Shown: positions 20,421-24,140 of the stretch, piece by piece
Layout of the letters: the number at the start of each line of letters is the position of its first letter
Numbering within the stretch: the stretch's first letter is position 1
Assembly: GCA_038065495.1 (NCBI GenBank)
Contig: JBBTQW010000002.1
Location: forward strand, 1,537 to 65,536
Reading direction: 5' to 3'
From: Patescibacteria group bacterium
Lineage (GTDB): Bacteria > Patescibacteriota > Minisyncoccia > Phycocordibacterales > JACOZG01
Length of the DNA stretch: 64,000 nucleotides
Position numbers and translations under genes: made by a program
The notes under the pieces: generated by a model
Seen by the model: only the letters and a program-made list of their open reading frames with translations
The model's database searches: none
What the model was told of the DNA's origin: nothing

Positions 20421-20825
20421 TAATAGCTTAAATCTATTAAGTGTGTTAGGGTGAAACTTGGTGGCGGGACGACACCAGGTTTGCGTCTTTATGCGAATGT
20501 TTGGCTGTCCCACCACCAATTTTCTAGTTCTTTTCAAAAATTGGGTTACGCAAGTATAGCTGTCTGAGAAGACGAAACTAAGCGTGTAACCCAAACAAAC
20601 TGCGGTGAGCGGTGCTACATTTGTCTTTCGAGACGCCCGACTTGATGCTCACCGCATAACAAAATAAACAGGATGAGGACGATCAGCTCCGTGCTTTTCT
20701 AAGCGACTGAATTCGTGTCCTTATCCTGTTTCTTAATAAAAAGTGAGACGTCTCTTAAGATGCGCTTCTGCGCGATGGAACTGTTGTCCCACTTTGCCCC
20801 GGTCTTGCGACTGGGGCGTTTTTTT
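20421..20825 (+). ncRNA. structured-RNA-like repeat unit U1 (unknown family; lacks the unit promoter)
   Basis: Shares the conserved helices GGUGGCGGGACG..GUCCCACCACC, GGGUUACG..GUAACCC, GUCU-GAGA-AGAC (GNRA), GUCU-UUCG-AGAC, AAACAGGAUGAGGAC..GUCCUUAUCCUGUUU and GUGAGACG..GUCCCAC. Ends in the terminator at 20795..20825. It has no TTTACA-N17-TAGTCT promoter, so it may be transcribed by read-through or be inactive. Confidence 0.45.
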
Positions 20826-21224
20826 TATTTACAAAAATCACAAAATATGCTAGTCTGCAACAGGTGGTGGGACGAATGAGAATCTGTTCCCATACGACAC
20901 TGCGGCTGTCTCACCACCACTTTTCTAGTTCTTTCAAACTTTGGGTTGCGGATCTTAGGCTGTCTGTTAAGACGAGTATCGATGTGTAACTCAAGTAAAC
21001 CGCGGTGGGCGATCATTCTCATGTCTTTCGAGACGATGAAAAGTGTGTCCACCGCAGGACAAAATAAACAGGATGAGGACGAATGCTGAATTGCTTTTCG
21101 AAGCGTGTATTGTTGTGTTCTTATTCCTGTTTAATATAAAAAGTGAGACGAAGCCAAGCCTGTGCTTAGGTGCGACCAAGCGCATGTCTCACTTTGCCCC
21201 GTCAGAAATGGCGGGGATTTTTTT
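20826..21224 (+). ncRNA. structured-RNA-like repeat unit U2 (unknown family)
   Basis: Promoter TTTACA(20827-32)-N17 ending in TGc-TAGTCT(20850-55). Conserved helices as in U1/U3-U5, with one degenerate stem carrying an extra U. A UUCG hairpin lies inside the variable loop. Terminator gccccg..cgggg plus T7 at 21196..21224. Confidence 0.55.
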
Positions 21225-21232
21225 ATTCTAAC

Positions 21233-21261
21233 TTGACAGAATTATGATAATCTGCTAGGAA
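21233..21261 (+). promoter_or_regulatory. candidate promoter (TTGACA -35, weak -10) upstream of the IS110-like gene
   Basis: TTGACA at 21233-38; 17 nt downstream is TAGGAA. A second TTGACT lies at 21286. Confidence 0.3.
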
Positions 21262-21342
21262 TATAGACGGCGTTAGTCTAGTACCTTGACTTGTTTTTCA
21301 CGGATTTAATGTCGCTTGATTGCGACGGAAAGGAGTTGCTAT

Positions 21343-22788
21343 ATGCAACCGCAGAGAATCGTAGGTGTGGTCCACCGAGTGAAACGGACCAAGGAAGATG
21401 AGAATCGCCCCACCATGGTGGCGATTCTCAATCCCAGTACCGGAGCCACGCACGCTTATGAGCTCGAGACGGAGACGGATGAGCTGGATTGGCTCGCGGG
21501 GCGCTTCCCGACGCGTTACGAGAAGGTGGATCCCGATCCTGACCCTGATTCTGATCAGAGTCAGTTCTTGGGAAGCGTGCTTGATCGTCAGCTCCGGCGC
21601 AAGAAGCCGGACAGGGTGGCGATTACCAAGCTGAAGGAGCAGATTAAGACCGCTCGAGCCGAAGTGTCTAAGCAACTGGATGCGAAAAATGCACCAGAGG
21701 TAAGCCGCCTCAGTGCAAAAGAGGAGGGGCTGAAGAACTTGCTAGCTGAAGCTGAGGAAGGTCTCGTCTCTCATGTTCCGGTCGAGTTCGACGGTCTCAA
21801 GCCGGGCGATCACTTGGTGATGACTTTGGGCGGCTCAGGTGATTATCTCGCTCATGCCGCTCAACGCCAAGCTCAGAAGATTGGTGCTCGGGTCTCGCGG
21901 ATCAAACCCTTTGATCTCAAAGTCGAGCGCGGTGGTGATGCCAGCAAGAAGGCCAAGGCCGAAGATCATCTCTTGCTCGCTCGGCTTGCCTCTGAGCGAC
22001 CAGACTTGTTCACCCCCATGACCGAGAGTGATCTCTCGCAGATTGAGGTGGGGATTGTCTTCCGGCGTCGGCAAGAGGTGATGCGCGATCGCATTGCTTG
22101 TGGTCAGCGGATCCTCAAGCGCTTGATTGGTGAGACTTTCGTCACTGCCAATCTGGCACCGGAGAAGTCGCTTGCCGATCTCTACGAGGAGGTGGTAGCG
22201 AACGACGCGGTGTACCAAGCAATTCTCTCTGAAGAAGAGAAATGCAATCGCGAGTTGGCTCGCTTGGTCGAAGCCCAACCGGTCTACGAGCAGATCTTGG
22301 ACGGTGTGGAGGGAGTGGGTGTGCGCATCGCGGCACCGATTCTCGCTCGCATTGGTAATATCGGGCGCTTTGCCACGGTGGCCAAGTTCAAGAAGTTCTG
22401 TGGTGTGCATGTGATGGCTGATGGCCGTTTTCCGCGTCGTCGCGAGGGCGAGCTCGCCAGCTGGTCACCAGAGTTGCGCCAGACCTTCTACTTGCTTGGC
22501 GATCAATTCAATCGTCGGCCGGGGAGTGTCTGGGGGCAGAAACTGCTTGAGTACAAAGCCAAGTTCCGGGCCAAGTATCCAGAAGCGGTGCAAGTGCCCA
22601 AGCTGGAGAAAGGCAAACCAGTTCTCAATCCGGACGGTTCGGACAAGCTGGTGCGGAGGTATGGCGATGGTCATATCCACCGCATGGCTACGTGGCGAAC
22701 GATTACCCGTTTCGCCGAATGGCTCTATCGCGAATGGTCGCGCTTGAGCCCAGAGACTGGATCCGTGAAGCAAGATAAAGCAGCGTGA
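21343..22788 (+). CDS. IS110-family-like recombinase/transposase, possibly divergent or domesticated
   Basis: RBS AAAGGAG lies 7 nt before ATG 21343; the ORF track used an upstream TTG at 21316. The C-terminal segment GVGVRIAAPILARIGNIGRFATVAKFKKFCGV...LASWSPELRQTFYLLG matches the IS110 Transposase_20 helix-hairpin-helix motif GIGxxTAxxLxAEIGDIxRFxSxxxLxxYxGL. The N-terminal region has IS110 DEDD-domain-like blocks (RIVGVVHRVKR.., IKPFDLKVERGGDASKKAKAEDHLLLARLA, which resembles VNP..K.F.K..GKRAKTDKIDAEAIAR). The gene is GC-rich compared with the host. The expected catalytic residues are not obvious by eye. Confidence 0.6.
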   Translation: MQPQRIVGVVHRVKRTKEDENRPTMVAILNPSTGATHAYELETETDELDWLAGRFPTRYEKVDPDPDPDSDQSQFLGSVLDRQLRRKKPDRVAITKLKEQIKTARAEVSKQLDAKNAPEVSRLSAKEEGLKNLLAEAEEGLVSHVPVEFDGLKPGDHLVMTLGGSGDYLAHAAQRQAQKIGARVSRIKPFDLKVERGGDASKKAKAEDHLLLARLASERPDLFTPMTESDLSQIEVGIVFRRRQEVMRDRIACGQRILKRLIGETFVTANLAPEKSLADLYEEVVANDAVYQAILSEEEKCNRELARLVEAQPVYEQILDGVEGVGVRIAAPILARIGNIGRFATVAKFKKFCGVHVMADGRFPRRREGELASWSPELRQTFYLLGDQFNRRPGSVWGQKLLEYKAKFRAKYPEAVQVPKLEKGKPVLNPDGSDKLVRRYGDGHIHRMATWRTITRFAEWLYREWSRLSPETGSVKQDKAA

Positions 22789-22839
22789 GGAGACGAGTAT
22801 CGAAACGCTCTAACGAGCGAATGAAGCAATGTTTCTAAA

Positions 22840-22943
22840 CGCTACTTTCTAAACAGTGAGACGGACGCAAGTCTGTGCTTCGGCACGAACCAAGGTTTTT
22901 CTCACGACCCATCCTCGTTGCTCGGCATCGGGATGGGTTTTTT
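22840..22943 (+). ncRNA. partial copy of the repeat-unit 3' module plus terminator downstream of the IS110-like ORF
   Basis: AAACAGUGAGACG-[variable region with GUGC-UUCG-GCAC hairpin]-UCUCAC, then hairpin acccatcc..ggatgggt plus T-run (22907..22943). The same GUGAGACG..GUCUCAC plus terminator architecture closes every repeat unit. Confidence 0.45.
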
Positions 22944-23343
22944 CTTTACAAAAACTTATAAATATGCCAGTTTGCAGTTGGTGGTGGGGCGATGATTATG
23001 GTGTGCTCTTGCGCGGAAGAACGTCTGCCCACCACCACTTTTCTAGCTCTTTCAAACTTTGGGTTGCGCAAATAGGACTGTCTGTGAAGACGAGAATAGT
23101 CGTGCAACTCAAGTAAACTGCGGTGGATGTTGATTTCAGTGTCTTTCGAGACGAGGAAGCCCTTGTCCACCGCAGGACAAAATAAACAGGATGAGGACGA
23201 AACTTAAGTTGTTTTCCTAAAAGCGTACAAGGTACTGTCCCATCCTGTTTCTTAATAAAAAGTGAGACGAAGACTTTCTTGCATCCTGGTGCGATTCTTC
23301 GGATGTCTCACTTCGCTCCGGTCTTGCGACTGGAGCGTTTTTT
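22944..23343 (+). ncRNA. structured-RNA-like repeat unit U3 (unknown family)
   Basis: Promoter TTTACA(22945-50)-N17-CAGTTT(22968-73). Helices include GGUGGUGGGGCG..GCCCACCACC, GUCU-GUGA-AGAC (GNRA, 23080-91), GUCU-UUCG-AGAC (23141-52), AAACAGGAUGAGGAC..GUCCCAUCCUGUUU and GUGAGACG..GUCUCAC. Terminator gctccg..ggagc plus T-run at 23315..23343. Confidence 0.6.
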
Positions 23344-23742
23344 CTTTACAAAAACTTATAAACATGCTATTTTCCAACTGGTGGTGGGGCGATGCTGTGC
23401 CTGCGTTTTCGCGCGGTTTGTAGGATGTCCCACCACCATCTTTCTAGTTCTTTTAAACTTTGGGTTGCGAATCTCAAACTGTCTGTAAAGACGAGGATCG
23501 GTGTGCAACGCAAGTAAACTGCGGTGGGCGAGTGTTGATGAGTCTTTTGAGACGAGGAATCAAATGCCCACCGCAGGACAAAATAAACAGGATGAGGACG
23601 ATTGGGTTCGTGCTTTTCGAAGCGATGGTTGGTGATGTCCTCATCCTGTTTCTTAATCAAAAGTGAGACGAGTATCTGTTTGCGCTTCGGTGCGAATGGT
23701 CGCGTGTTTCACTTGGCCCCGACGTAATGTCGGGGTTTTTTT
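23344..23742 (+). ncRNA. structured-RNA-like repeat unit U4 (unknown family)
   Basis: Promoter TTTACA(23345-50)-N17(TGc)-TATTTT(23368-73). Same helix set: GUAA GNRA loop, GCUU-UUCG-AAGC hairpin in the variable loop, and GUCCUCAUCCUGUUU pairing with AAACAGGAUGAGGAC. Terminator ccccgac-gtaat-gtcgggg plus T7 at 23716..23742. Confidence 0.6.
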
Positions 23743-24140
23743 CTTTACAAAAACTTATAAATATGCTAGTCTGCGCCTGGTGGTGGGACGATCTTCGAGG
23801 TGCGCTTCGGCGAGATCAGAGCGGATGTCCCACTACCACTTTTCTAGCTCTTTTTGAAAAATTGGGTTGCGCGTGACTAGTTGTCTGAGAAGACGGAGAT
23901 TGGTTTGCAACCCAAGTAAACTGCGGTGGACGCTGTAATGGTTGTCTTTCGAGGCGACTGAAGATTTGTCCACCGCACGACAAAATAAACAGGGTAGGGA
24001 CGAATGATGGGTTGTCTTTGGACGATTTGGATCATGTTCCTCCCTGTTTCTTAATAAAAAGTGAGACGATTCCTTGCGTGCGCTTAAGCGCGACGAAGCT
24101 CTTGTCCCACTTGGCCCCGACAACCGTCGGGGCATTTTTT
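23743..24140 (+). ncRNA. structured-RNA-like repeat unit U5 (unknown family)
   Basis: Promoter TTTACA(23744-49)-N17(TGc)-TAGTCT(23767-72). Helices show compensatory changes relative to U2-U4 (AAACAGGGUAGGGAC pairs with GUUCCUCCCUGUUU; GGGUUGC with GCAACCC). GAGA GNRA loop. Terminator gccccgac-aacc-gtcggggc plus T6 at 24114..24140. Confidence 0.6.

Follow-up and report, generated by a model that had tools for sequence, protein, structure and literature searches.

The 64,000-nucleotide stretch of DNA analysed here, positions 1,537 to 65,536 of contig JBBTQW010000002.1 from a Patescibacteria group bacterium (hereafter the window), very probably carries a chromosomal stem-loop TIGR-Tas locus of the Patescibacteria or candidate phyla radiation (CPR), in which 27 guide RNA (tigRNA) modules accompany the gene for a TIGR-associated protein, TasR, that is likely to bind DNA without cutting it. 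The locus adds a new example to a family described in the literature of 2025-2026 and does not establish a class of its own. The architecture of the array, the covariation of its stems, the confinement of variability to the spacers, the family and fold of the protein and the linkage of protein and array are established in this analysis; because agreement was found at every sequence-level criterion, the locus has been filed as a stem-loop TIGR array with a TasR of the CPR clade that is predicted to be catalytically dead. The original prediction for this region had described five repeat units, each presenting hypervariable loops on a constant scaffold, and had proposed that they are programmable guide or specificity loops organised like IS110 bridge RNAs or other programmable RNAs.

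TIGR-Tas systems have been described as dual-spacer guide arrays that lie beside Nop-domain Tas proteins, with spacer A base-paired to one DNA strand and spacer B to the other, and with box C/D elements anchoring the spacers on a symmetric dimer (Faure et al., Science 2025, PMC12045711). The same report describes a CPR clade of TasR that has an inactive RuvC domain and is linked to stem arrays. A catalogue of 2,559 stem-loop arrays defines their unit as a box C (CGA), 9 nt and a box D (TG), present twice inside a palindromic stem, and describes in CPR tigRNAs a hairpin between the spacers, which is 5 bp long in the RNA of CsTasR (Xu et al., bioRxiv 2026, 10.64898/2026.09.09.750476). The DNA-bound structure of CsTasR in that report has R8 and V126 at catalytic positions and 9+9 nt of pairing to an 18-bp target; the complex is reported not to cleave, and to mediate reversible RNA-guided transcriptional repression (Xu et al., bioRxiv 2026). 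The published criterion for such arrays is two 14-nt intervals (C[CGTA]A + 9 nt + TG/CG) that are no more than 15 nt apart.

All 27 copies of the RNA module in the window lie on the plus strand between 20456 and 24142. Twenty-five of them make up five paralogous tandem cassettes of about 375 nt (U1-U5), each with five modules (H1-H5) and a terminator of its own, and the other two (X1 and X2) are in the 3' untranslated region (3'UTR) of tasR, a 481-codon open reading frame (ORF) between U2 and U3. The approximately 400-nt tandem units of the original prediction are confirmed by Tandem Repeats Finder (period 401 nt), by repeat families (spacings of 400, 2118, 401 and 402 nt) and by alignment; X1 and X2, 3' of the protein gene, come in addition to them. 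When the five cassettes were folded together with RNAalifold, five hairpin modules followed by an intrinsic terminator were obtained, and cassette U4 by itself has a minimum free energy of -159 kcal/mol (z = -10.2 against shuffles). A generic structural scanner that used no motif was dropped since it gave too many false positives, and in its place a covariance model of 48 positions was built from 22 modules of this locus. It matched the 64-kb window exactly 27 times, always on the plus strand and always within the array (20465-24109), which places the module pattern far beyond chance.

Each module consists of an outer stem, 10-16 bp long and closed by a C-G and a G·U pair, a 10-nt strand, a 14-nt hairpin, a second 10-nt strand, and a UG that leads into the returning strand of the stem. 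The internal loop so formed is pseudo-two-fold symmetric, with 5'-CG N10 UG-3' on both strands in 27/27 modules and the two intervals 10 nt apart, so that the published two-interval arrangement is found in every module, with a strict CGA in about half. The first N of the 10-nt strand is A in 18/27 left and 21/27 right strands. The inner hairpin starts with UG and ends with CG; it is 14 nt long, with 5 bp and a tetraloop, in 24/27 modules, and 14 nt is also the modal length in related loci. The inner box D of X1 is CG and not UG, and the extended outer stem of this module begins at about 22782 and thereby overlaps the final tasR codons together with the stop.

This anatomy bears on how the repeats had been read. 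Helix strands ending in GACG with partners beginning (U)GUC are indeed seen, as ...(G)ACG and UGU/UGC, but two of the strands that had been listed alongside the others as conserved helix strands (..AAGACG and ..CGAGACG) form the 3' sides of inner hairpins and do not belong to outer helices. The inserts had been given as unrelated between copies and 10-45 nt long. Their hypervariability stands, while the single-level anatomy does not, as two structural levels had been merged: the reported range arises because 10 nt corresponds to one spacer strand and 34-36 nt to spacer, hairpin and spacer together. Each cassette accordingly has ten variable segments in five pairs in place of the approximately five to seven exposed variable sequences first counted.

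The same design recurs well beyond this genome. More than 117 TasR homologs were found, 33-50% identical to the protein in the window, and nearly all of those with a named source come from metagenome bins of Patescibacteria/CPR. Eighty genomic loci of homologs were fetched for comparison of modules and neighbourhoods, and in these the module model gave 399 matches (E<0.1), grouped close to the homologous genes on their upstream and downstream sides, with modules starting 5-40 nt past the tasR stop in most of them. All 300 matches that were listed are on the tasR strand; further runs added three weak echoes and one separate match on the minus strand. An alignment of 150 modules from 25 related loci has 98.8% of its stem cells paired and contains 399 double-sided compensatory changes, a number reached by 0/500 shuffles. 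The closing pairs (outer C-G and G·U, inner U·G and G-C) are each present in 147-148 of the 150 modules, and among 247 related modules CGA makes up 84% of the outer and 74% of the inner boxes C, and UG 96-99% of the boxes D. In the window the locus splits the rpsP-KH-trmD cluster at a site between KH and trmD (19185-24849). In five to six diverged relatives (L007, L002, L019, L053, L061 and L062) it stands beside the same genes or RNase R at other insertion points, either following trmD or neighbouring RNase R, in the latter case with KH and trmD adjacent. Because its neighbourhood is the same in several diverged lineages, the locus may be vertically inherited.

The protein encoded between U2 and U3 passes the NCBIfam equivalog model for TIGR-Tas proteins (NF052498.1, TIGR_Tas_endo) with 139.8 bits where the cutoff is 100 (E=1.2e-40; aa 238-467, profile positions 3-215 of 215). 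A phmmer search of the Protein Data Bank (PDB) gave the TIGR-TasR complex 9MTY_A as the sole match below E=0.1 (E=1.5e-10), the two other matches (E ~0.3) being unrelated EF-hand proteins. An AlphaFold2 (AF2) model made with a 26-homolog alignment has a pLDDT of 90.2, and in a Foldseek search this model retrieved 9MTY chains A and B first (E=3e-11, TM 0.6 on the target), followed by the IS621 and ISCro4 recombinases (~5e-7) and TasH (~4e-6). The layout is that of a RuvC-like N-terminus, a helical insertion, a coiled coil and a C-terminal RNA-binding domain of the Nop type. In the family alignment a conserved N-terminal strand, RxIGI[R/V/T]HRVK, occupies the place where RuvC and IS110 enzymes have GID; the first catalytic Asp is replaced by Val10, and none of the 26 homologs has Asp or Glu at the GI[D] position of beta-1, where most have Arg. 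In the AF2 model the insertion is a helical hairpin (~aa 91-139) between the N-terminal strands and strands 142-161, and its length varies across homologs. As an observation on the other end of the protein, 33 of 76 TasR homologs have Ala-Ala, and many others x-Ala, as their last residues behind a variable tail, which in the window's TasR (aa 474-481; C-terminus at 22774-22788) has a pLDDT below 50 in the AF2 model. The ending is conserved at the protein level because its codons differ between loci, and it could be an ssrA-like C-terminal degron or some other C-terminal signal.

Kinship with IS110 recombinases raises the question of whether the protein is an RNA-guided transposase of the bridge-RNA type, in which the loops would bind target and donor and steer the insertion of a mobile element. 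The sole Pfam match (3e-5) is to Transposase_20, the C-terminal domain of IS110, and DEDD_Tnp_IS110, which does not match the window's protein at E<=1, is matched by 7/26 homologs. The recombinases follow among the structural matches, as given above, and a tasR 3'UTR with exactly two modules (about 155 nt including the terminator) superficially resembles a two-loop bridge or seek RNA 3' of its gene. IS110 and IS621 (Durrant et al., 2024; PDB 8WT6/8WT9) share with TasR a homologous RuvC-like N-terminus, coiled coil and Transposase_20/Nop-like domain, and their guide RNAs likewise have internal loops whose 5' and 3' strands address opposite DNA strands. Nevertheless, a bridge-RNA recombinase is very improbable here. 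The protein reaches 48.3 bits on the IS110 profile NF033542, where the cutoff is 140, and 17.7 on NF051857, where it is 180, while it passes the TIGR-Tas model; the first Asp of the DEDD motif is absent in all 26 homologs; and TasR 9MTY is a better match than IS621 in both sequence and fold. IS110 elements have a single RNA with one target and one donor loop, active DEDD and Ser chemistry, and a mobile, multi-copy lifestyle, whereas this locus has 27 equivalent dual-spacer modules and a RuvC-like domain that is predicted to be dead. The gene is single-copy in the window, the other contigs that carry it are identical assemblies (matching the window at 100% over stretches of 9.4 kb and 2.1 kb), and the locus keeps its rpsP-KH-trmD/RNase R surroundings in the diverged relatives. 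Matching of the loops to the flanks of the gene or island, as expected of bridge RNAs, was not found: no spacer pair matches these flanks or the rest of the window with fewer than three mismatches in any geometry or gap tested. The IS110 analogy of the original prediction thus holds as evolutionary kinship and fails as family membership. By contrast, its proposal of guide loops on a constant scaffold is supported by the fit of the modules to the tigRNA definition, by the TIGR-Tas protein model and by the linkage in 80 loci, the guiding role itself being predicted by homology, and the same three observations bear out its statement that the repeats are not a housekeeping RNA.

Variability is confined to the loop strands. 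Mean pairwise identity between cassettes is 87% for outer stems, 81% for unpaired linkers, 81% for promoter-like regions and 76% for inner hairpins (the hairpin itself being variable in H1 only, at 57%), whereas the two 10-nt loop strands have 32% and 36%, close to the 26% expected at random from composition. The loops keep their length of 10+10 nt, and indels are almost absent. The idea that the variable strands form a fast-evolving helix was rejected, since their longest antiparallel runs are the same as in mispaired loops (permutation p=0.43), and no direct or reverse-complement relation between the two loop strands was found in 247 further modules. As their mutual complementarity is no greater than in mispaired controls, the loop strands are exposed single strands and not a helix. 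Paralogous cassettes of several modules also occur in the related loci L003, L022 and L038, where stems recur in order with unrelated spacers; 83 pairs of modules with the same stem in other loci have a mean spacer identity of 0.30, and in L022 (4477-5918) the stem GCAAACG/CCCAGCG appears in five copies spaced about 315 nt apart.

It could be argued that the array is a decaying tandem repeat or a structured housekeeping small RNA whose loops vary through neutral drift, slippage or indels. Spacers at the same position in different cassettes do keep a faint homology (5.86 against 4.91 matches of 18, Mann-Whitney p=0.005), with U2H2 and U4H2 sharing 13/18, and no targets were found for the spacers in searches of the window, of the flanks of related loci or, for four 18-mers, of viral contigs. 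Decay is hard to reconcile with the fixed loop lengths, with unpaired linkers and promoter regions that remain conserved beside nearly random spacers, with box C/D nucleotides around the spacers that are near-invariant over 150-247 modules and with the recurrence of the design beside the same protein family in 80 loci; moreover, no Rfam family matches anywhere in the window. This explanation is the least probable of those considered.

The pseudo-symmetric dual-guide layout is also that of box C/D RNAs, which suggests another alternative, that the spacers pair with rRNA or tRNA and the protein is a Nop5-like scaffold for a methyltransferase. Archaeal and eukaryotic box C/D s(no)RNPs (Nop5-fibrillarin-L7Ae) have a pseudo-two-fold RNA with two guides of about 10 nt between C/D and C'/D', and a Nop-domain dimer with an inactive RuvC-like domain, a combination of domains found here too; Faure et al. 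(PMC12045711) speculate that the CPR clade is a possible intermediate towards snoRNPs. The boxes in the window are CGA and UG, not the RUGAUGA/CUGA k-turn boxes of those particles, and L7Ae, fibrillarin, RNA targets and guides shared across species, which mark box C/D s(no)RNPs, were not seen. Guides to rRNA would be expected to recur, whereas no spacers are shared across loci beyond chance, the closest of about 30,000 cross-locus pairs differing at 4/18 positions, and this argues against conserved targets such as rRNA. No rRNA is encoded in the window itself. The complex of CsTasR, from the same clade, is reported to bind double-stranded DNA and repress transcription, and TaTasR is reported to have no activity on RNA substrates. 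A role in RNA modification is therefore highly unlikely.

By homology with the published systems, the stem-loop TIGR-Tas locus would operate as six transcription units, namely the five five-module cassettes and a tasR mRNA with two modules in its 3'UTR, whose transcripts would be processed into single-module tigRNAs as described in the literature. In each module the stem and the small inner hairpin hold the symmetric internal loop open, so that each strand presents a box C (CG-A), a 9-nt spacer and a box D (UG), and a TasR dimer, as in the solved TasR and CsTasR complexes, would bind the two box C/D pairs of one module. Spacer A would then pair to one strand of the DNA, and spacer B to the neighbouring 9 nt on the opposite strand, giving an 18-bp site that should read on one strand as 5'-spacerA + revcomp(spacerB)-3', a geometry derived from the reported 8-nt 3' overhangs, the 'C-5 rule' and the analogy with bridge-RNA loops. 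Because the RuvC-like domain is without its first catalytic Asp, binding without cutting is most likely, and the complex would stay on DNA and block transcription as an RNA-guided repressor or blocker.

Several observations weigh against this assignment. At the level of the RNA, approximately half of the modules in the window have CGC, CGG or CGT in place of CGA at the third base of box C, and the reported CUU processing motif follows H1, H4 and H5 and not H2 or H3, so that CUU is at only 3/5 stem bases per cassette, unlike the stem-loop arrays as published. At the level of the protein, inactivity of the RuvC-like domain is read from a motif alignment at the first catalytic position and not from residue-wise superposition. 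The remaining points come from the search for targets. The 27 spacer pairs were compared as 18-mers (both as A+rc(B) and as rc(A)+B, allowing a gap of 0-2 nt) with the other ~60 kb of the window, the array being masked, and the best matches had 3-4 mismatches of 18 or more, equal to mispaired controls. The own-locus flanks of 240 related modules have no enrichment at up to three mismatches (0.0125 against 0.0123, with mispaired spacers of the same locus as controls) and a marginal excess only at up to four (0.163 against 0.116), and four exact 18-mers gave no matches to viral contigs. These nulls do not refute a guide function because the window covers only about 10% of the genome, and the published account of TIGR systems states that their natural targets 'cannot yet be determined'.

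Two apparent signals in these searches were rejected. An earlier excess with spacers of other loci as controls (41 against 22 at up to four mismatches) was gone at up to three mismatches and marginal at up to four once same-locus mispaired spacers were used, and an excess in the B+A geometry was largely due to self-matches on the module's own stem. In one related locus (L026), three spacer pairs have 3-mismatch matches on the same strand within 2 kb downstream of the array (10263, 11616 and 12196, minus strand); this cluster is probably due to chance because such matches are no commoner across loci than in mispaired controls.

The closest published counterpart is the stem-loop TIGR-Tas system of Candidatus Staskawiczbacteria (CsTasR), as described, which also has a Patescibacteria host and arrays on the tasR strand that lie upstream as well as downstream of the gene. 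Its unit follows the same order (stem, CGA, 9-10 nt, UG, 5-bp hairpin, CGA, 9-10 nt, UG, stem), its first catalytic Asp is likewise replaced (R8, compared with Val10 here and Arg in most homologs), and its RuvC domain has an insertion of about 80 aa between beta-3 and beta-4, to which the helical hairpin described above may correspond. The N-terminal motif M-x-R-x-IGIRHR is common to the family. CsTasR differs in its reported length of 547 aa, against 481 aa here, and its arrays differ in that the modules of the window form five paralogous five-module cassettes; the published accounts mention sub-arrays and leave separate promoters open. TaTasR (PDB 9MTY; Faure et al., 2025) provides the best sequence and fold match and, as reported, shares the tandem-spacer logic, the box C/D anchors, an effector that is a Nop-domain dimer, and an array closed by a terminator. 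It differs in having an active RuvC domain (D11) that cuts both strands, in 36-nt units with 8-12-nt edge and loop repeats that lack long stems and an inner hairpin, in a box C that is CCA and not CGA, and in RNA processing via a Tas Y/H loop that is described as absent from stem-loop clades. CRISPR arrays resemble the locus in placing hypervariable spacers on a constant scaffold beside an RNA-guided effector. Unlike them, the locus has no 25-36-nt direct repeats and no cas1/cas2 adaptation genes, its spacers are split into 9+9 nt for both DNA strands, and no protospacer-adjacent motif (PAM) is required according to published TIGR work.

The features of the locus are collected in Table 1. Elements of the type TTTACA-17-TGCTAGTCT stand upstream of U2-U5 and TTGACA-17-TGCTAGGAA upstream of tasR, the TGCTAG -10 motif being common to both kinds, and only the U4 copy passed a strict sigma-70 scan. 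The terminator after X2 was read from the sequence, as the terminator scan did not list it because its loop exceeds 8 nt.

Table 1. Features of the stem-loop TIGR-Tas locus (positions in the window)
Feature	Position	Strand	Description	Basis
U1 degenerate promoter	20447-20452	+	-10-like TAGGGT; degenerate -35	Read by eye from sequence
Cassette U1	20456-20832	+	H1 20465-20512, H2 20544-20591, H3 20605-20652, H4 20675-20722, H5 20744-20791; terminator 20795-20818	Covariance model, consensus fold, terminator scan
Promoter-like element of U2	20828-20856	+	TTTACA, 17 nt, TGC-TAGTCT (extended -10-like)	Conserved in cassette alignment; putative function
Cassette U2	20860-21232	+	H1 20868-20913, H2 20944-20991, H3 21005-21052, H4 21075-21122, H5 21144-21191; terminator 21197-21216	
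Promoter-like element of tasR	21233-21261	+	TTGACA, 17 nt, TGC-TAGGAA	Read from sequence; putative
tasR	21343-22788	+	481-aa TIGR-associated protein, CPR clade	
Module X1	22789-22836	+	First 3'UTR tigRNA	Covariance-model match, 34.6 bits
Module X2	22857-22904	+	Second 3'UTR tigRNA; then terminator hairpin 22907-22944	Covariance-model match, 39.3 bits
Promoter-like element of U3	22945-22973	+	Equivalent to that of U2	
Cassette U3	22977-23348	+	H1 22985-23032, H2 23062-23109, H3 23123-23170, H4 23193-23242, H5 23263-23310; terminator 23314-23337	
Promoter-like element of U4	23345-23373	+	Equivalent to that of U2	
Cassette U4	23378-23748	+	H1 23385-23432, H2 23463-23510, H3 23524-23571, H4 23594-23642, H5 23664-23711; terminator 23715-23737	
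Promoter-like element of U5	23744-23772	+	Equivalent to that of U2	
Cassette U5	23777-24142	+	H1 23784-23832, H2 23865-23912, H3 23926-23973, H4 23996-24041, H5 24062-24109; terminator 24114-24133	

A 75-aa ORF (20133-20360) lies directly upstream of U1; a sigma-70 promoter close to consensus (TTGACA-16-TATACT, 20062-20089) precedes it, and a terminator of its own (20389-20415) follows. Considered as an accessory gene, it has no Pfam match and no homolog in the 80 related loci. Two further ORFs, at 18676-19062 (minus strand, 128 aa, about 1.4 kb upstream) and 24919-25209 (plus strand, 96 aa, about 0.8 kb downstream), have no Pfam match and are called genes in the public assembly. Elsewhere in the window, a low-GC island (~0.37; 13802-16347) encodes a type II restriction-modification system, in which two N6/N4 DNA methylases (13802-14548 and 15523-16347, both on the plus strand) flank a 326-aa PvuII-like endonuclease (14540-15520, minus strand). 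The endonuclease looks like two fused PvuII-like halves (..GNEYEYKHYK.. and ..GNTYEYKVSK.. being the repeat), and it is possible that it is a single-chain pseudo-dimer paired with two methylases.

The locus itself adds nothing categorically new to the TIGR-Tas family, and its value is that it is unusually legible, with 27 defined guides, a terminator for every cassette and four conserved promoter-like motifs. TIGR-Tas systems, as compact RNA-guided DNA binders and nucleases that need no PAM, are under development for genome editing and gene regulation. To our knowledge, the CPR dead-nuclease clade is the only non-viral, array-bearing branch of the family, and it has been proposed to link IS110 transposases to the box C/D snoRNPs of eukaryotes. 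As it lies on a long chromosomal contig (>330 kb), the locus is a good candidate for addressing two open questions of the field, the natural targets and the renewal of spacers.

For the second of these, the mechanism of which the literature describes as unknown, the five paralogous cassettes allow the divergence of the scaffold to be separated from that of the spacers. Stems, unpaired linkers and promoters have diverged by 13-19% among cassettes, while the 9-nt spacers are almost randomised. Turnover among close relatives was not recovered, as a 23-nt scaffold pattern had no match in the JGI metagenomes and blastn with the whole cassette had none in the 80 related loci. The residual homology between same-position spacers indicates that at least some of them diverged by point substitution. 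It is a hint that accelerated point substitution, as opposed to wholesale replacement, underlies the change of at least some spacers, and it is no more than a lead on TIGR spacer renewal. A more specific proposal, which we regard as speculative and rather doubtful, is that spacers diversify in situ, either under strong diversifying selection or by hypermutation or patch conversion that acts locally, within the box C-box D intervals only, the chromosomal locus itself possibly being vertically inherited. Were this the case, in-situ diversification would point to a mechanism for the renewal of TIGR spacers, and possibly to a role in the regulation of host genes and not in defence.

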